The notes beneath the pieces are model-generated. The model searched no databases. It had not been told where the DNA came from and saw nothing but the letters and a program-made list of their open reading frames with translations. Positions 2,239 to 47,555 of a stretch of DNA of 64,000 nt are shown one piece after another. This DNA is from Escherichia coli (lineage in GTDB: Bacteria; Pseudomonadota; Gammaproteobacteria; Enterobacterales; Enterobacteriaceae), in the NCBI RefSeq assembly GCF_003334315.1, contig NZ_QOWR01000018.1; one strand, 5' to 3'. Position 1 is the first letter of the stretch, and every line of letters starts with the position of its first letter. Both the position numbers and the translations under genes were made by a program.

Positions 2239-3492
2239 TCAGGCGTGCAGACGACGATGCAAACGCGTCCCGACCAGCAGAGCAATGACCAGCATCAGAG
2301 CAATAAATGCGCCGACGCCGTTCCAGCCATAGTTATGCCAGAAAACACCACCCAGCGTCCCGGCAATACTCGACCCCAGATAGTAACTGAACAGATACAG
2401 CGAGGAGGCCTGGCCTTTAGCGCGTTTTGCGCGGGGGCCGATCCAGCTGCTGGCTACTGAGTGGGCTGCGAAGAATCCTGCTGAGAAGAGTAACATTCCG
2501 GCAAAGATCAGCCACAGCGAGCTGAATAAGGTCATCAGTAAACCAAACAGCATAACCCCCGTCGAAAACAACATCACTGGACCACGCCCATAGCGGGTGG
2601 TCATGGTTCCGGCTTTGGGTGAGCTCCATGTACCGGTCAAATAAGCCAGCGATAATAAGCCAACCACGGCCTGACTGACGTGCCAGGGGGAGAGCATCAA
2701 CCGATAGCCGATGTAATTAAACAGCGTGACGAACGACCCCATCAGCAAAAAGCCTTCTGCGAACAATAACGGTAATCCCCGGTCACGCCAGTGCAGACGA
2801 AAGTTGATAAACAACGTCTTAGGGCGCAGCGAAGTCGGGCGAAAATGGCGTGATTCAGGGAGGATTTTCCAGAACATCAACGCCGAGGCCAGCGCGAAAC
2901 AACCGATTGCCGCCAGAGCAATTCGCCAGTTGAAAAAGTCCGTGAAGACACCGCTAATTAAGCGTCCGCTCATGCCGCCAATTGAGTTGCCGCTGATATA
3001 CAACCCCATTGAAAAGGCCACGAAACTGGGATGGATTTCCTCGCTAAGATAAGTCATGCCAACAGCTGCCACGCCACTTAACGAAAGCCCAATCAAGGCG
3101 CGCATAATCAAAATGCCGTGCCAGCTGGTCATCATTGTCGAAAGTAACGTACAAATGGAGGCCAACAGTAGCGCCGTGACCATCACTGGTTTGCGACCAA
3201 TGGCATCGGATAGCGGGCCAGTAAACAGCAAACCAATAGCCAACATCGCCGTGGAAATGGACAGTGAAATACTACTGTTCGCGGGGGTTAAGCCAAACTC
3301 CTGCGAAAGCACCGGAAGGATAGGCTGCACACAATAGAGAAGTGCAAATGTTGCCAGTCCGGCAGAGAACAGCGCCAGGGTGACGCGCATAAATTGCGGC
3401 GTACCGCGTTTAATAAATTGATTTGGCTGAGAAATGCTTTGCTTGTCAGTGTCGCTTGCCGGAGCGCCATCAACAGTTGTAGTACGGCTCAC
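2239..3492 (-). CDS. ynfM: MFS transporter YnfM (417 aa)
   Basis: 12-TM hydrophobic ORF; position between asr and ynfL. Confidence 0.8.
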   Translation of the reverse strand: MSRTTTVDGAPASDTDKQSISQPNQFIKRGTPQFMRVTLALFSAGLATFALLYCVQPILPVLSQEFGLTPANSSISLSISTAMLAIGLLFTGPLSDAIGRKPVMVTALLLASICTLLSTMMTSWHGILIMRALIGLSLSGVAAVGMTYLSEEIHPSFVAFSMGLYISGNSIGGMSGRLISGVFTDFFNWRIALAAIGCFALASALMFWKILPESRHFRPTSLRPKTLFINFRLHWRDRGLPLLFAEGFLLMGSFVTLFNYIGYRLMLSPWHVSQAVVGLLSLAYLTGTWSSPKAGTMTTRYGRGPVMLFSTGVMLFGLLMTLFSSLWLIFAGMLLFSAGFFAAHSVASSWIGPRAKRAKGQASSLYLFSYYLGSSIAGTLGGVFWHNYGWNGVGAFIALMLVIALLVGTRLHRRLHA

Positions 3493-40660: not shown

Positions 40661-40820
40661 TTTCCATGGTGGCGGCAGCATGTTTGGTAATTTATTGATA
40701 ATTAAAAGTTATTTCTCTTTTCAGCTGTACAATATTTTTTTCTCCCTGTCATTAGACTAGTTTGCAATTAATTGAAATATATAAATAAACCTGATTTTCA
40801 CCTGCCAGATGGAGTTGCTT

Positions 40821-41348
40821 ATGTCAAATGTGAGCGGGATCGGTGATGCTTATTACTGGAGTGTTTTTAAAATCGCCGAGGCCTTTGGGCTTCACCGGGA
40901 CACAGTAAAAAAACGGCTCCTCGCGGCCAACACTCCTGTGGCTGCGACTGTCAGGGGGAACCCCGTTTACGCCCTGCAGCATGTCGGGCCTGCCCTGTTT
41001 AGTGTGAAGCATGAGGCAGCAGACTCTGTTCATGATCCATCCCGTATGGAGCCGAAAGAGAGAAAGGACTGGTACCAGTCGGAAAATGAAAGGATCAAGT
41101 TGGAAAAGGAGCAGCGAAAACTCATCCCCGTTGATGAAGTAGTCATCGTCTATTCGTCCATGAGAAAGGCTGTCGTCCAGGTTCTGGAGACAATTCCGGA
41201 TGTTCTTGAACGCGATTGCGCCCTGACTCCTCAGGCCGTTGGCGTTGTACAGCAGGCCATTGATGACCTGCGATACACTCTTCAGGAAAAATCCTACGAG
41301 GCTTGTGCTGCTGAATTAATTCCTGATGAGGAAGGAGAGAGTCTCTAG
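40821..41348 (+). CDS. Terminase small subunit (Nu1-like)
   Basis: N-terminal HTH-like segment; immediately upstream of the large terminase. Confidence 0.7.
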   Translation: MSNVSGIGDAYYWSVFKIAEAFGLHRDTVKKRLLAANTPVAATVRGNPVYALQHVGPALFSVKHEAADSVHDPSRMEPKERKDWYQSENERIKLEKEQRKLIPVDEVVIVYSSMRKAVVQVLETIPDVLERDCALTPQAVGVVQQAIDDLRYTLQEKSYEACAAELIPDEEGESL

Positions 41349-41356
41349 GAGGAATA

Positions 41357-43456
41357 ATGGGTTTTTCATCAGCCCGAAATTTGGGAAGGGACATATCGGC
41401 AGGATTTTCCCCACCACGTCGCATGCCGATTTCGGAGGCTGTTAAAAAATTCATGCGTGTTCCCAAGGGGGCTGGTAACTCGGTGCCATGGGATCCTGAA
41501 CTGACACCCTACATCATTGAGCCCATGAACTGCCTGGCATCGCGTGAATACGATGCGGTGATTTTTGTTGGTCCTGCGCGAACAGGGAAGACCATTGGTC
41601 TGATCGATGGATGGATTGTCTATACCATCGTTTGCGATCCTTCGGACATGCTCGTTGTGCAGATGACCGAAGATAAGGCCCGCGAGCATTCAAAAAAGCG
41701 CCTCGACAGAACGTTCAGAAGCAGTGCGGCGGTAAAGAAAAGAATGAGTCCACGTCGTAATGACAATAATGTCCATGATAAGACGTTCAGGGATGGCTCG
41801 TTCCTTAAAATTGGTTGGCCCTCGGTCAACATTATGTCGTCGTCGGATTACCGGTTTGTCGCCTTAACCGATTACGACCGTTTTCCGGAGAATATCGACA
41901 GCGAGGGTGATGGTTTCTCCCTGGCCTCAAAACGTACCACCACATTTATGTCCGCCGGGATGACTCTGGTGGAGAGCTCGCCGGGACGTGACATCTGCGA
42001 CAGCAAATGGCGACGTAAGTCGCCTCATGAAGCGCCACCGACGACTGGTATTCTTTCCCTTTACAATCGTGGTGACCGCCGCCGCTGGTACTGGCCATGT
42101 CCGCACTGCGGTGAATATTTTCAGCCAGCCATGGATGCCATGACCGGCTACCGTAATGAACCGGATCCCTTTAAAGCCAGTGAGGCGGCGTATCTACTTT
42201 GCCCGCACTGCAGCGGCATTATCACTGCGGAGAAAAAGCGTGAGCTCAATAGTGCAGGAGTCTGGTTGCGTGAAGGTCAGGTCATTGATTGTAACGGCAA
42301 CGTTTCCGGTGAACCGCGCCGCTCCCGTATCGCCAGTTTCTGGATGGAAGGGCCAGCTGCTGCGTATCAGACCTGGGCGCAACTGGTTTACAAATTACTG
42401 ACTGCAGAACAGGAGTATGAAGCGACAGGAAGTGAAGAAACACTCAGGGCGGTTATCAACACCGACTGGGGATTACCTTATCTTCCCCGCGCCAGCATGG
42501 AGCAACGAAAAAGTGAACTGCTTGAGCAGCGGGCAGAGCCAGTTCCTTCCCGCAGTGTGCCAGATGGCGTTAATTTTCTTGTGGCGACAGTGGATGTGCA
42601 GGCGGGACGTCATCGCCGTTTTGTGGTTCAGGTAACGGGCTATGGCAGCCGTGGCGAACGCTGGATTATTGATCGTTACAACATCACGCAGTCATTGCGC
42701 GGTGACAGCGACGGGGAGAGCCAGCGAATTGATCCGGCCAGCTATCCGGAAGACTGGGATGTCCTGCTGACGGATGTTTTTCATAAAAGCTGGCCGCTGG
42801 CCTCCGATCCTTCTCAACAAATGCGACTGATGGCAATGGCGGTGGACTCCGGCGGTGAAGACGGGGTCACTGATAATGCCTATAAATTCTGGCGTCGTTG
42901 CCGTCGTGATGGCCTTGGTAAACGTATTTACCTGTTTAAGGGCGACAGCATCCGGCGCGCAAAACTGATCACCCGTACATTCCCTGATAACACCGGACGA
43001 ACGGGCCGACGGGCGCAGGCCGCAGGTGATGTGCCGCTCTGGCTTCTTCAGACGGATGCACTGAAAGACCGGGTGAATAACGCGTTATGGCGTGACTCGC
43101 CAGGTCCCGGCTATGTGCATTTCCCTGACTGGCTGGGGAGCTGGTTTTACGACGAACTGACGTATGAAGAGCGGAGCAGTGACGGGAAATGGAGTAAGCC
43201 GGGTCGCGGTGCCAACGAAGCTTTTGACCTGATGGTGTATGCCGAGGCTCTGGTCATTCTGCATGGATACGAAAAGATCCGCTGGCCGGATGCACCGGAG
43301 TGGGCGAGCCGGGAAACCTGGCTGGAGTGTGTCCCGGACAGTACCGAACCGTCATCCTCACCGGAACCGGTATCCACGCCTGTTAAAAAACAAAAACGGA
43401 AGAAAACAGTAACTGACGATGTTAACCCCTGGCTGACTTCCGGAGGATGGTTATGA
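41357..43456 (+). CDS. Terminase large subunit (lambda gpA-like)
   Basis: Walker A VGPARTGKT; 699 aa. Confidence 0.9.
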   Translation: MGFSSARNLGRDISAGFSPPRRMPISEAVKKFMRVPKGAGNSVPWDPELTPYIIEPMNCLASREYDAVIFVGPARTGKTIGLIDGWIVYTIVCDPSDMLVVQMTEDKAREHSKKRLDRTFRSSAAVKKRMSPRRNDNNVHDKTFRDGSFLKIGWPSVNIMSSSDYRFVALTDYDRFPENIDSEGDGFSLASKRTTTFMSAGMTLVESSPGRDICDSKWRRKSPHEAPPTTGILSLYNRGDRRRWYWPCPHCGEYFQPAMDAMTGYRNEPDPFKASEAAYLLCPHCSGIITAEKKRELNSAGVWLREGQVIDCNGNVSGEPRRSRIASFWMEGPAAAYQTWAQLVYKLLTAEQEYEATGSEETLRAVINTDWGLPYLPRASMEQRKSELLEQRAEPVPSRSVPDGVNFLVATVDVQAGRHRRFVVQVTGYGSRGERWIIDRYNITQSLRGDSDGESQRIDPASYPEDWDVLLTDVFHKSWPLASDPSQQMRLMAMAVDSGGEDGVTDNAYKFWRRCRRDGLGKRIYLFKGDSIRRAKLITRTFPDNTGRTGRRAQAAGDVPLWLLQTDALKDRVNNALWRDSPGPGYVHFPDWLGSWFYDELTYEERSSDGKWSKPGRGANEAFDLMVYAEALVILHGYEKIRWPDAPEWASRETWLECVPDSTEPSSSPEPVSTPVKKQKRKKTVTDDVNPWLTSGGWL

Positions 43457-43665
43457 ACCAGAATGATATCGAAGCCATGATTCAGCGTTATACGGAAGCT
43501 GAAATGGCGGTGCTGGACGGAAAATCCGTCACCTTTAATGGTCAGCAGATGACCATGGAAAACTTATCTGAGATCAGGCAGGGACGGCAGGAGTGGGAGC
43601 GCCGCCTTGCGGCTCTGATTACACGACGACGGGGGCATCCCGGGTATCGGCTGGCGAGGTTCTGA
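43447..43665 (+). CDS. Head-tail joining protein (gpW-like)
   Basis: About 70 aa between terminase and portal, ends ...RRRGHPGYRLARF. Confidence 0.65.
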   Translation: MVMNQNDIEAMIQRYTEAEMAVLDGKSVTFNGQQMTMENLSEIRQGRQEWERRLAALITRRRGHPGYRLARF

Positions 43666-45140
43666 TGGCAATTCTTGATGATGTGATTGGCGTTTTTTCA
43701 CCAGGATGGAAAGCGGCAAGGCTGCGTTCCCGTGCGGTGATCCAGGCTTATGAGGCCGTAAAAACGACGCGGACACACAAAGCCCGACGGGAGAACCGAA
43801 CTGCCGACCAGTTAAGCCAGTACGGGGCCGTGTCGTTACGTGAGCAGGCCCGTTACCTTGATAACAACCACGATCTGGTTATTGGTGTATTTGACAAGCT
43901 GGAAGAACGGGTGGTGGGGAAAAACGGGATTATTGTCGAGCCACATCCGGTATTACGCAATGGGGCCATTGCCCGTGACCTGGCTGCGGAGATTCGCACC
44001 CGATGGAGTGAATGGTCTGTCAGCCCGGAAGTCACCGGGCAGTTTACCCGTCCGATGCTGGAACGTCTGATGCTTCGTACCTGGCTGCGCGATGGTGAGG
44101 TGTTTGCCCAGATGGTTTCCGGGCGCATAAACAGCCTGACGCCTTCTGCCGGTGTTCATTTCTGGCTGGAGGCGCTCGAGCCGGACTTTATTCCCATGAC
44201 CAGTGATGAGAGCAACAGGCTGAATCAGGGCGTGTTTGTTGATGACTGGGGGCGTCCCGAAAAATATCTGGTGTATAAAAGTCGTCCTGTATCCGGACGG
44301 CAGATGGAAACCAAAGAAGTGGATGCAGAGCGAATGCTGCATCTTAAATTTGTTCGCCGTCTGCACCAGATGCGCGGGACGTCTTTATTGTCCGGTGTGC
44401 TGATCCGCCTCAGCGCCCTGAAAGAGTATGAAGATTCTGAGCTGACTGCAGCAAGGGTCGCCGCTGCTCTGGGGATGTACATCCGCAAAGGCGACGGACA
44501 GAGCTATGAAACGGATGGTAATGACAGCAAGGAGAATGAACGCGAGCTTACCATTCAGCCAGGCATTATTTACGACGATCTGAAACCCGGCGAAGAAATC
44601 GGAATGGTGAAGTCGGATCGCCCAAATCCTAACCTTGAAACTTTTCGTAATGCTCAGTTGCGTGCCGTGGCGGCGGGCAGTCGTCTGAGTTTTTCCAGTA
44701 CAGCGCGCAACTATAACGGCACTTACAGCGCCCAGCGTCAGGAGCTGGTTGAATCCACTGATGGCTACCTGATCCTGCAGGACTGGTTTATTGGTGCCGT
44801 CACCCGCCCGATGTATCGTGCCTGGCTGAAACAGGCTGTGGCATCCGGTGTTATCAGGCTACCCCGCGATCTTGACCGTTCTTCACTGTATACCGCGGTG
44901 TATTCCGGACCGGTGATGCCGTGGATTGACCCTGTTAAGGAGGCTGAGGCCTGGAAAATCCAGATTCGTGGTGGAGCGGCGACAGAATCAGACTGGGTAC
45001 GTGCAGGTGGTCGTAATCCGGATGATGTCAAACGTCGGCGCAAGGCCGAAATTGATGAAAACCGCAAGCTGGACCTGGTATTTGATACCGATCCGGCCAG
45101 TGATAAAGGAGGCAGCAGTGCCGCAACGAAACGACAGTAG
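43665..45140 (+). CDS. Portal protein (lambda gpB-like)
   Basis: ATG overlaps the W stop (ATGA); about 491 aa. Confidence 0.85.
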   Translation: MAILDDVIGVFSPGWKAARLRSRAVIQAYEAVKTTRTHKARRENRTADQLSQYGAVSLREQARYLDNNHDLVIGVFDKLEERVVGKNGIIVEPHPVLRNGAIARDLAAEIRTRWSEWSVSPEVTGQFTRPMLERLMLRTWLRDGEVFAQMVSGRINSLTPSAGVHFWLEALEPDFIPMTSDESNRLNQGVFVDDWGRPEKYLVYKSRPVSGRQMETKEVDAERMLHLKFVRRLHQMRGTSLLSGVLIRLSALKEYEDSELTAARVAAALGMYIRKGDGQSYETDGNDSKENERELTIQPGIIYDDLKPGEEIGMVKSDRPNPNLETFRNAQLRAVAAGSRLSFSSTARNYNGTYSAQRQELVESTDGYLILQDWFIGAVTRPMYRAWLKQAVASGVIRLPRDLDRSSLYTAVYSGPVMPWIDPVKEAEAWKIQIRGGAATESDWVRAGGRNPDDVKRRRKAEIDENRKLDLVFDTDPASDKGGSSAATKRQ

Positions 45141-47145
45141 CCGCAGTACACCGACGACCAGTCCGAAGAATAATTCCTGGTTCAGGATGCAGGCTGGTCA
45201 CCAGAGTGACGCGGATATTTATATTTATGACGAGATTGGTTTCTGGGGTGTTACAGCGAAGCAGTTTATCAGTGATCTGAATGCACTGGGCGATATCACC
45301 CACATTAATCTCCATATCAATTCACCGGGTGGCGATGTCTTTGAAGGCATCGCCATTTTTAATGCGCTGAAAACACATGGTGCGTCCATTACCGTTTATG
45401 TCGACGGTGTGGCGGCATCAATGGCGTCGGTCATTGCGATGGTGGGAAACCCGGTCATTATGCCGGAAAACACCTTCATGATGATTCATAAACCATTTGG
45501 CTTTACGGGCGGTGATGCGGAGGACATGCGCACCTATGCCGACCTGCTCGATAAAGTTGAGGCGGTTCTGTTACCCGCTTATGCACAGAAAACCGGGAAA
45601 ACCACCGATGAAATTGCTGCCATGCTGGCGGATGAGACCTGGATGTCCGGTGCCGAATGTCTGGCACATGGATTTGCTGATCAGGTAACGCCAGCCGTTA
45701 AGGCAATGGCATGTATTCAGTCAAAACGTACAGAGGAATTTAAAAAGATGCCGGAATCCATTCGAAACATGATTACTCCGCCACGCAACAGTGCTCCACG
45801 CGTACAGGATAATGAACCTGAAGCCTCCCGGACGCCAGTGCAGGCAGCAGCACCCGTGGTGGATGAAAACAGCATCCGTGCGCAGGTACTGGCAGAGCAA
45901 AAAGCGCGTGTAAACGGTATTAATGATCTGTTTGCCATGTTTGGCGGGCGTTATCAGACGCTGCAGGCTCAGTGTCTTGCCGATCCTGAATGTTCGCTGG
46001 AGCAGGCCCGCGAAAAGCTGTTGAACGAGATGGGGCGCGAGTCCACGCCATCCAATAAAAATACCCCGGCTCATATTTATGCCGGTAACGGTAATTTTGT
46101 GGGGGACGGGATCCGCCAGGCGCTGATGGCGCGTGCCGGATTTGAAAAAACCGAACGTGATAATGTCTACAACGGGATGACCCTGCGTGAATATGCCCGT
46201 ATGTCACTGACTGAACGGGGTATTGGGGTTTCCAGTTATAACCCGATGCAGATGGTCGGTGCGGCGTTCACACACAGTACGTCTGACTTCGGTAATATTC
46301 TGCTGGATGTTGCGAACAAAGCCATTCTGCAGGGCTGGGAAGATGCCCCTGAAACCTATGAACAGTGGACGCGGACAGGTCAGTTGTCTGATTTTAAAAT
46401 TGCCCATCGTGTGGGTATGGGGGGCTTCAGTGCTCTGCGTCAGGTGCGTGAAGGGGCGGAATATAAATACGTCACCACCGGAGATAAACAGGCCACTATT
46501 GCACTGGCGACCTATGGCGAGCTGTTCAGTATCACCCGTCAGGCCATTATCAATGATGATCTGAATATGCTGACCGATGTCCCGATGAAGTTGGGCCGTG
46601 CGGCGAAATCCACTATTGCCGATCTGGTTTATGCCATTCTGACGTCTAACCCGAAAATCTCCACAGATAATGTAAGTCTGTTCGATAAAGCGAAACATGC
46701 AAACGTACTGGAGAGCGCTGCAATGGACGTGGCATCGCTGGATAAAGCCCGCCAGTTGATGCGCGTTCAGAAAGAGGGGGAGCGTCATCTGAATATTCGT
46801 CCTGCGTTCGTACTGGTACCGACGGCGATGGAGTCTGTTGCTAACCAGGTCATTCGCTCCTCAAGTGTCAAGGGGGCTGACATTAACGCCGGTATTATTA
46901 ACCCGGTGAAAGATTTTGCGACCGTTATTGCAGAGCCTCGTCTTGATGATAACAGCCAGACCACCTTCTACCTGGCTGCGTCAAAAGACTCCGATACGAT
47001 TGAAGTGGCTTATCTCAACGGTGTGGATACGCCATATATTGATCAGATGGAGGGCTTCAGTGTGGATGGCGTGACAACGAAAGTGCGTATTGACGCCGGT
47101 GTCGCGCCAGTTGATCACCGCGGCCTGGTGAAATGTACGGCGTAA
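45118..47145 (+). CDS. Fused prohead protease (ClpP-like S14) and major capsid protein
   Basis: GTG start after AAAGGAGG; N-terminal ClpP-like region (INSPGGDVFEG ... MASVIAMVG ... MMIHKP); C-terminal capsid-like domain of about 400 aa. Confidence 0.8.
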   Translation: MPQRNDSSRSTPTTSPKNNSWFRMQAGHQSDADIYIYDEIGFWGVTAKQFISDLNALGDITHINLHINSPGGDVFEGIAIFNALKTHGASITVYVDGVAASMASVIAMVGNPVIMPENTFMMIHKPFGFTGGDAEDMRTYADLLDKVEAVLLPAYAQKTGKTTDEIAAMLADETWMSGAECLAHGFADQVTPAVKAMACIQSKRTEEFKKMPESIRNMITPPRNSAPRVQDNEPEASRTPVQAAAPVVDENSIRAQVLAEQKARVNGINDLFAMFGGRYQTLQAQCLADPECSLEQAREKLLNEMGRESTPSNKNTPAHIYAGNGNFVGDGIRQALMARAGFEKTERDNVYNGMTLREYARMSLTERGIGVSSYNPMQMVGAAFTHSTSDFGNILLDVANKAILQGWEDAPETYEQWTRTGQLSDFKIAHRVGMGGFSALRQVREGAEYKYVTTGDKQATIALATYGELFSITRQAIINDDLNMLTDVPMKLGRAAKSTIADLVYAILTSNPKISTDNVSLFDKAKHANVLESAAMDVASLDKARQLMRVQKEGERHLNIRPAFVLVPTAMESVANQVIRSSSVKGADINAGIINPVKDFATVIAEPRLDDNSQTTFYLAASKDSDTIEVAYLNGVDTPYIDQMEGFSVDGVTTKVRIDAGVAPVDHRGLVKCTA

Positions 47146-47168: not shown

Positions 47169-47188
47169 GGCCCGTAAGGGCTTTTTTT
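47169..47188 (+). terminator. Rho-independent terminator after the capsid gene
   Basis: GCCC-GTAA-GGGC followed by TTTTTTT. Confidence 0.55.
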
Positions 47189-47231
47189 GTACCTGAAATC
47201 AGCCCCTGAACGGGGCTGTGCGGAGACAGTT

Positions 47232-47555
47232 ATGGCAAAGAATTTTGTAGAAGAAGGAAAAACGGTGGCGATTGTTGCCAGTGCAGCCATCAGCAGCGGA
47301 GATCTGGTGCAGGTGGGTGATGTTTTTGCGGTAGCGCTGACCGATATTCCACAGGGTGAAACAGGCGACGGCCTGACCGAAGGTGTGTTTATGCTGCCTA
47401 AGCTGAAAACGGATGACATGAAAACGGGTAAGAAGGTTTATCTGAAGTCCGGAAAAGTTCAGTTGACTAACAGCGGCTCTGATCCGCTGGTCGGGGTTGT
47501 CTGGGCAGATGCCGGAACCAGTGCAGAAGAAGTGCCGGTAAAACTCAATGTCTGA
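47232..47555 (+). CDS. Head-associated hypothetical protein (108 aa)
   Basis: ORF with GGAGA SD after the capsid gene. Confidence 0.55.
   Translation: MAKNFVEEGKTVAIVASAAISSGDLVQVGDVFAVALTDIPQGETGDGLTEGVFMLPKLKTDDMKTGKKVYLKSGKVQLTNSGSDPLVGVVWADAGTSAEEVPVKLNV

Follow-up and report, generated by a model that had tools for sequence, protein, structure and literature searches.

In a stretch of 64,000 nucleotides of Escherichia coli DNA (RefSeq assembly GCF_003334315.1, contig NZ_QOWR01000018.1), referred to here as the window, a lambdoid prophage carries one long open reading frame (ORF), at positions 45118-47145, between its portal gene and a head decoration gene. This ORF is very probably the sole head-shell gene of the prophage, encoding a protease, a linker, a scaffold-like segment and an HK97-type capsid protein in one frame. 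As it carries the defining features that a sequence can reveal, the gene is assigned to the family of tripartite capsid genes typified by that of Salmonella phage Gifsy-2. Comparative sequence analysis also tips slightly in favour of nested in-frame genes, in which a selectively maintained internal start would add a 50.8-kDa scaffold-capsid protein to the 73.6-kDa polyprotein.

In an ORF scan of the window, the frame containing the fusion gene was open from position 44926 to the TAA at 47143-47145, and translation from the GTG at 45118 gave 675 residues with no internal stops. The RefSeq annotation is the same: in an E. coli chromosome 99.9% identical to the window, the equivalent of 45118-47145 was annotated by PGAP as WP_077761210.1, with the product name 'ClpP-like prohead protease/major capsid protein fusion protein'. 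The GTG lies 5 bases downstream from a Shine-Dalgarno (SD) sequence, AAAGGAGG, whose duplex with the anti-SD sequence has a calculated energy of -11.6 kcal/mol, and the gene begins inside the portal gene, which ends in another frame at a TAG (45138-45140), giving an overlap of 23 nt. The uninterrupted ORF, its GTG start behind an SD sequence and the overlap with the 3' end of the portal gene had all been described in the original prediction, made from the letters of the window, and were found as described.

Several phage records, including the GenBank entries of Ayreon and cdtI, place the start of this gene 23 codons later, at the ATG at 45187, for a protein of 652 aa. Residues W21-F22 lie upstream of this ATG, and a motif of the form M-x(2-8)-W-[YF] opens most of the 58 diverse homologues (33-69% identity) that made up the conservation alignment used throughout. 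In addition, the arrangement AAAGGAGG-N5-GTG is kept in phage 1720a-02 at a DNA identity of 78%. Because the ATG start drops the Trp-Phe/Tyr motif of the family and the SD-GTG arrangement is kept in 1720a-02, GTG 45118 is on these comparisons the better start call, a result of use for the annotation of the phage records that have the later start. The end of the overlapping portal gene is variable: its TAG stop codon is GAG in phage Ayreon, where the portal continues for 11 codons to a TAA equivalent to 45171-45173. The C-terminal tail of the portal protein is polymorphic and lies within the 5' end of the fusion gene.

The fusion protein matched the NCBIfam model NF045540 with 984 bits (cutoff 475), residues 32-674 being aligned to positions 2-651 of the 652 in the model, and the match to PHROG 133 spanned its full length. 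Its N-terminal part was recognised by the Pfam profile CLP_protease (residues 31-191, E 5e-36) and by NF045542, the ClpP-related head maturation protease domain (residues 32-190). Here, the counterparts of the catalytic Ser and His of ClpP are Ser101 (in the sequence AASM) and His124 (in MIHKP), both invariant in 58/58 homologues. Its C-terminal part matched the Pfam profile Phage_capsid_4 (residues 377-672, E 1e-54) and, more weakly, Mu-like_gpT. The AlphaFold2 model, built from the alignment of 58 sequences (mean pLDDT 88), was made up of a ClpP-like part (residues ~20-195), three helices (250-307), a low-confidence stretch (~308-326) and a C-terminal domain with a long spine helix and beta-rich regions, as in HK97-fold capsid proteins.

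The reading given in the original prediction is supported: the two domains that it named, an S14-like protease at the N-terminus and a capsid domain at the C-terminus, are both present. It overlooked a third, scaffold-like segment, which the model and the alignment place between them. The gene is tripartite: protease, scaffold-like middle segment and capsid protein. A scaffold role for residues 250-307 is suggested by analogy with the central domains of the Gifsy-2 protein and of MD8 gp5. The Gifsy-2 gene was reportedly presented as a 'tripartite capsid gene' by Effantin et al. (2010, Virology 402:355), with a central domain said to be of roughly 200 residues. A central scaffold domain has also been described for MD8 gp5 (PMC8508860). 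The maturation cleavage that would free the capsid protein most likely falls within residues 308-326, this being the best guess that the model allows. Just past the protease domain, an [FY]-x-x-x-P motif was observed at 45739-45753 (Phe208...Pro212), with Phe or Tyr in 47/58 homologues and Pro in 51/58; it is kept family-wide though the surrounding linker varies, and may serve in docking or cleavage.

The fusion gene is already known, and the original prediction overlooked that its arrangement is that of a named, curated family, with near-identical genes in coliphages and a Gifsy-2 homologue that was studied in 2010. A 2.4-kb region containing the gene was 98.5-99.5% identical at the DNA level to phages mEp460, cdtI, Ayreon, Tritos, HannyBb and others; for Stx phages, VT1-Sakai among them, the identity was ~78%. 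At an identity of 98.5% or higher, the gene occurs in at least 16 genome records of phages. Of 5426 complete E. coli genomes, 2135 carry it, and in more than 2000 it is full length. When 1.84 billion cluster representatives were searched exhaustively without a profile, 7005 proteins were returned at E <1e-30, the best 150 of which were mostly full-length fusions with 35-60% identity; the protease-capsid architecture recurs in over 100 clusters formed at 50% identity. Among more distant relatives, the Gifsy-2 gene product was 70% identical in amino acids over its full length, in an identical gene order, and identity to the Pseudomonas F10 protein was 56% at a coverage of 97%.

The name of this gene varied among the GenBank phage records compared (ON470598, MF807953, AB285204, JQ182728 and PV340560; start coordinates were checked in Ayreon and cdtI): 'head-tail preconnector protease C', 'Nu3', 'putative protease/scaffold protein', 'Major head protein' and 'head maturation protease' were all used. 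Labels such as 'Nu3', 'protease' or 'scaffold' mask that the ORF would be the only capsid gene. That several records carry only such a label could be taken as a sign that the C-terminal domain is some other head component and that the true capsid gene lies elsewhere in the prophage, and the similarity of this domain to solved structures is indeed weak (best E 2.5e-4). No second capsid or scaffold gene was found in the head module by RefSeq annotation or PHROG matches, and the profile match and predicted fold of the domain are those of a capsid protein. This explanation is considered very unlikely.

Still less credible is that the ORF is an artefact, produced when separate protease and scaffold-capsid genes were fused by a sequencing error or by prophage decay. 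Erroneous fusions do exist at the locus, where single-base deletions at varied positions have given rise to 1159-aa portal+fusion proteins, and in one draft genome the protease and the scaffold-capsid part are in different frames. However, over 2000 complete E. coli genomes have the ORF uninterrupted, the fused gene is present in at least 16 phage records, in Gifsy-2, in F10 and in over 100 clusters formed at 50% identity, and the curated NCBIfam model that matches it end to end was made for the fused form. As judged from these sequence comparisons, the artefact is already refuted.

A programmed frameshift from the portal to the capsid frame was also considered, as both frames are open across 44926-45140, and was rejected. 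The 1159-aa proteins, of which protein databases contain many, are, like those of 1135 and 1080 aa, singletons with junctions scattered in this interval; because the junctions differ and each protein is a singleton, the 1159-aa fusions are attributed to independent 1-nt deletions or sequencing errors. Two stand-alone scaffold-capsid proteins (P0234 and P0167) were likewise discarded as representatives of an unfused ancestor, one being truncated where its contig stops and the other lying after a frameshift in a draft genome. In contig BBMQ01000056.1 of assembly GCA_000755365.1 (positions 2880-3010; L098), a protease of 201 aa and a scaffold-capsid protein of 443 aa are in different frames, and the second gene was called from the ATG equivalent to that of Met211 (AAGGATTTTCATAACATG). 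The probable cause is a frameshift, the prophage being degraded, or an error in the draft assembly.

By homology with Gifsy-2, and in line with what is generally known of HK97-like assembly, a T=7 procapsid would be built on the portal by co-assembly of the precursors, whose protease and scaffold parts would point inward. The protease would then cut away itself and the scaffold part, and the leftover capsid protein of ~38-40 kDa (349-368 aa) would form the T=7 shell. On DNA packaging the shell would expand, and trimers of the DUF2190 decoration protein encoded downstream would cement it. Initiation at a second start in the same frame, ATG 45748, would probably add a protease-free scaffold-capsid precursor, with the protease being provided by only a fraction of the subunits. 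Self-processing, which the original prediction had already taken the fusion to imply, is proposed because of the 70% full-length identity to the Gifsy-2 protein, and the cleavage position and assembly pathway would likewise follow from homology. According to later papers, the assembly of the Gifsy-2 capsid has been studied by experiment (as cited in PMC12315714 and PMC8538268), its prohead protease and coat genes are fused (PMC12315714), its decoration is trimeric and gpD-like (PMC8538268) and its geometry is T=7 (PMC8814770).

Some points weigh against this scheme. The details of the Gifsy-2 pathway are taken at second hand, from such citing papers and from what the abstract of the 2010 study reportedly states. 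In the protease domain, the position of the catalytic Asp of ClpP is occupied by Glu173, a residue that is Glu in 49/58 homologues and Asp in 5/58, and catalysis may depend on a Ser-His-Glu triad or on a Ser-His dyad. Finally, the prophage may be defective elsewhere.

The candidate internal start lies in the variable linker, where the ATG at 45748 (Met211, opening the sequence MPESIRNM) follows the sequence AGAGGAA. In a scan of the window gene, this was the only in-frame start preceded by an SD sequence between the domains, and initiation from it would produce a scaffold-capsid protein of 465 aa (50.8 kDa) without the protease. An ATG with an upstream AGGA(G) was also listed at the equivalent site in 1720a-02, Gifsy-2 and Pseudomonas F10, with a few other candidates there too. 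In the clade to which the window gene belongs, the ATG and the upstream GAGGA were conserved in 84/84 loci; the viral loci compared within this clade numbered 80 (53-99% identity). In the alignment of 58 homologues, a Met was found in the linker of 57, typically ~25 residues beyond the Met211 column and preceded by residues rich in Glu, Lys and Gly (for example, TEKEGV or DKQEEGI followed by MP). In 8/8 distant homologues, no in-frame ATG paired more strongly with the anti-SD sequence than the linker ATG (rank 1 of 16-36), as in gagAAGGAGGgcgttATG and gcAGGAGGaaggcatcATG; the pairing was at least as strong as that of the annotated gene start in 5/8, being weaker in P0143 and P0186 and marginally so in P0170.

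The rank of the SD energy was rejected as a sole test, as it was ambiguous in the clade of the window gene, where Met115, Met137 and Met176, located in Gly/Glu-rich motifs of the protease, scored equal or better than Met211. As a control, the known Nu3 start of lambda ranked 2/17 by the same score. In lambda gene C, the strongest in-frame SD/ATG pair was AGGAGGGCGA-ATG at codon 309 (-10.8 kcal/mol), the annotated nu3 start at codon 239 having -6.9 kcal/mol. Because of the ambiguity in the clade, an analysis of synonymous sites was adopted. The Glu codon located 5 codons before the ATG was GAG in 36/36 unique contexts, compared to 39% GAG elsewhere, and in the cases in which codon 206 did not encode Glu it was AAG, CAG or GGA, with the AGGA core retained. 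When 79 unique genes were aligned by codon, the Glu206 codon (GAG in 63/63) was the top codon-bias outlier of 367 columns, with Pro212 ranking second, Lys203 fifth and Ser202 eighth. The RNA from -30 to +15 around ATG 45748 had a minimum free energy of -1.4 kcal/mol, compared to a mean of -9.2 +/- 3.7 for the gene, being the 6th least structured of 656 segments, and its G+C content was 38% versus 51%. The codon bias, the low structure and the SD sequence are the marks expected of an embedded translation initiation region and suggest that one is present here.

The alternative is that the 675-aa polyprotein is the single product, with the SD-like motif and Met211 being kept for a pause between domains, by a constraint on RNA or protein, or as a relic of two genes. 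Each shell subunit would then carry its own protease. The product is treated as one tripartite polypeptide in PMC8508860 and PMC12315714, and several observations weigh against an internal start: Met211 is not kept across the wider family, its column being Met in 4/58 distant homologues; its SD energy in the window is modest (-6.0 kcal/mol, rank 3/26) and is matched in the clade by G-rich codons of the protease domain; the spacer of 10 nt between GAGGA and ATG is rather long; and the p-values of the codon bias ignore phylogeny, so that its ranks alone are meaningful. In contrast, a single product does not account easily for a synonymous constraint that peaks at the SD core and at the codons on either side of the ATG, for the best SD/ATG pair falling within an otherwise unconserved linker in 8/8 distant homologues, or for an RNA unusually unstructured and A/T-rich around ATG 45748; furthermore, gene callers choose the ATG of Met211 if the upstream part is absent or frameshifted. 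The single product is therefore the less probable of the two, though it keeps a substantial share of the probability, and nested in-frame genes are mildly preferred.

If nested starts are real, the ratio between the two would set the number of protease copies per procapsid. An internal start would explain how ~415 protease copies per head are avoided despite the fusion of the protease to the shell protein, a matter of modest importance. It is also the sole part of this analysis that might be new: no mention of an internal start in such fusions was found in the accessible literature, from which the original Gifsy-2 paper is excepted, and an earlier description is possible.

The features described are collected in Table 1.

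Table 1. Positions in the window of the fusion gene, its parts and the neighbouring head genes (nt, nucleotides; aa, amino acids).
Feature	Position	Strand	Basis
Small terminase	40809-41348		
Large terminase	41357-43456		
gpW-like adaptor	43447-43665		
Portal gene, lambda-type, Phage_portal_2	43665 (ATG)-45140	+	phrog_21 portal, E 1e-137
Shine-Dalgarno sequence AAAGGAGG, 5 nt before GTG 45118-45120	45105-45112	+	Sequence; conservation in 1720a-02
Full fusion ORF, protease-scaffold-major capsid, 675 aa, 73.6 kDa, GTG start/TAA stop	45118-47145	+	NF045540, PHROG 133, RefSeq
ClpP-like (S14-type) head-maturation protease domain, residues 31-191	45208-45690	+	
Predicted catalytic residues Ser101; His124; Glu173	45418-45420; 45487-45489; 45634-45636	+	Alignment to ClpP
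Variable linker, residues 196-249, poorly conserved	45703-45864	+	Column entropy/gaps; pLDDT <50 at 224-246
Candidate internal translation start: GAGGA 45733-45737, 10-nt A/T-rich spacer, in-frame ATG 45748-45750 (Met211)	45733-45750	+	Sequence, synonymous bias, RNA folding
Putative helical scaffold-like (delta-domain-like) segment, residues 250-307, three predicted helices, invariant Arg264	45865-46038	+	AlphaFold model, alignment
Low-confidence segment, residues 308-326	46039-46095	+	pLDDT ~52 at 311-320
Major capsid protein, predicted HK97 fold, residues 327-675, ~38 kDa if cleaved near 327	46096-47142	+	
Terminator-like hairpin GGCCC-GTAA-GGGCT + T7, between fusion and decoration genes	47169-47189	+	
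Head decoration (cement) gene, 107 aa, DUF2190/Phage_cement_2	47232-47555	+	phrog_122 'head decoration', E 5e-47

The head module has the order small terminase (TerS), large terminase (TerL), adaptor, portal, fusion gene, decoration gene and tail genes. The order portal, fusion gene and Phage_cement_2 was kept in 8 distant loci, with PF09956 downstream of the fusion gene in 8/8. A terminator is annotated in phages Ayreon and mEp460 at the site equivalent to the hairpin at 47169-47189. This hairpin lies in the middle of the late operon, right behind the capsid gene, and under Q antitermination the capsid message could gain in stability or amount from it.

The window begins with a segment of the E. 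coli chromosome (mdtJI ... ynfE-H ... rspAB), followed from ~20480 by the lambdoid prophage, whose integrase abuts rspB. This position is the locus of the Qin remnant of K-12. Besides a full head and tail module, the prophage has the Qin-type genes dicB, ydfD, hokD, rem, essD, rrrQ, cspI and gnsB, and resembles a fuller relative of the defective Qin prophage of K-12. The window is collinear with strain WP8-S17-ESBL-05 at ~99% identity; in the lysis region (~36800-37296, essD/ydfR), ~360 bases are extra or replaced relative to that strain.

The closest system studied is that of Gifsy-2 (STM1034.3n, YP_001700678), which shares with the window the order of the domains, the terminase and adaptor genes, a portal gene overlapping the 5' end of the fusion gene and a downstream decoration protein of 107 aa that is 61% identical. 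It also has an in-frame ATG at the protease/linker boundary, with GAGGAG upstream. It differs in its host, in a divergence of ~30%, in the length and sequence of the linker and in the recorded start, which is an ATG located 86 nt inside the portal gene, compared to a GTG with a 23-nt overlap in the window. The genes of mEp460, cdtI, Ayreon and Tritos are essentially the same as that of the window, although they are named inconsistently in GenBank and their start differs.

Lambda resembles the window in its portal and terminase, which are of the same type, and in a small trimeric cement gene beside the capsid gene. Its protease C belongs to the same clan as that of the window (lambda C is S49 and ClpP S14, both with the ClpP/crotonase fold), and Nu3, nested in frame within C, is the model for the internal start proposed here. 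Unlike the window, where the decoration gene follows one single ORF, lambda has D before E, and C/nu3 and E are separate genes, a contrast that the original prediction had drawn correctly. In addition, the capsid domain of the window is of the Mu gpT/Phage_capsid_4 type, whereas lambda E is of another type. Nested protease/scaffold genes are a design shared by lambda (C/Nu3), Mu (I/Z), P2 and the herpesviruses, and an internal start in the fusion gene, if true, would extend this design to the capsid protein itself.

The proposed internal product is also similar to HK97 gp5, in which a scaffold-like N-terminal segment precedes an HK97-fold capsid protein and is removed by the prohead protease. 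However, the protease of HK97, gp4, is encoded by a separate gene and belongs to the S78/U35 family (herpesvirus-protease-like), and HK97 has a covalent chainmail where the phage type of the window has a cement protein. Finally, gp5 of Pseudomonas phages F10/MD8 combines protease, scaffold and capsid domains in a single gene as in the window (PMC8508860), and F10 also has an internal ATG with an AGGAG; the differences are a host of another genus and a longer N-terminal extension and linker.

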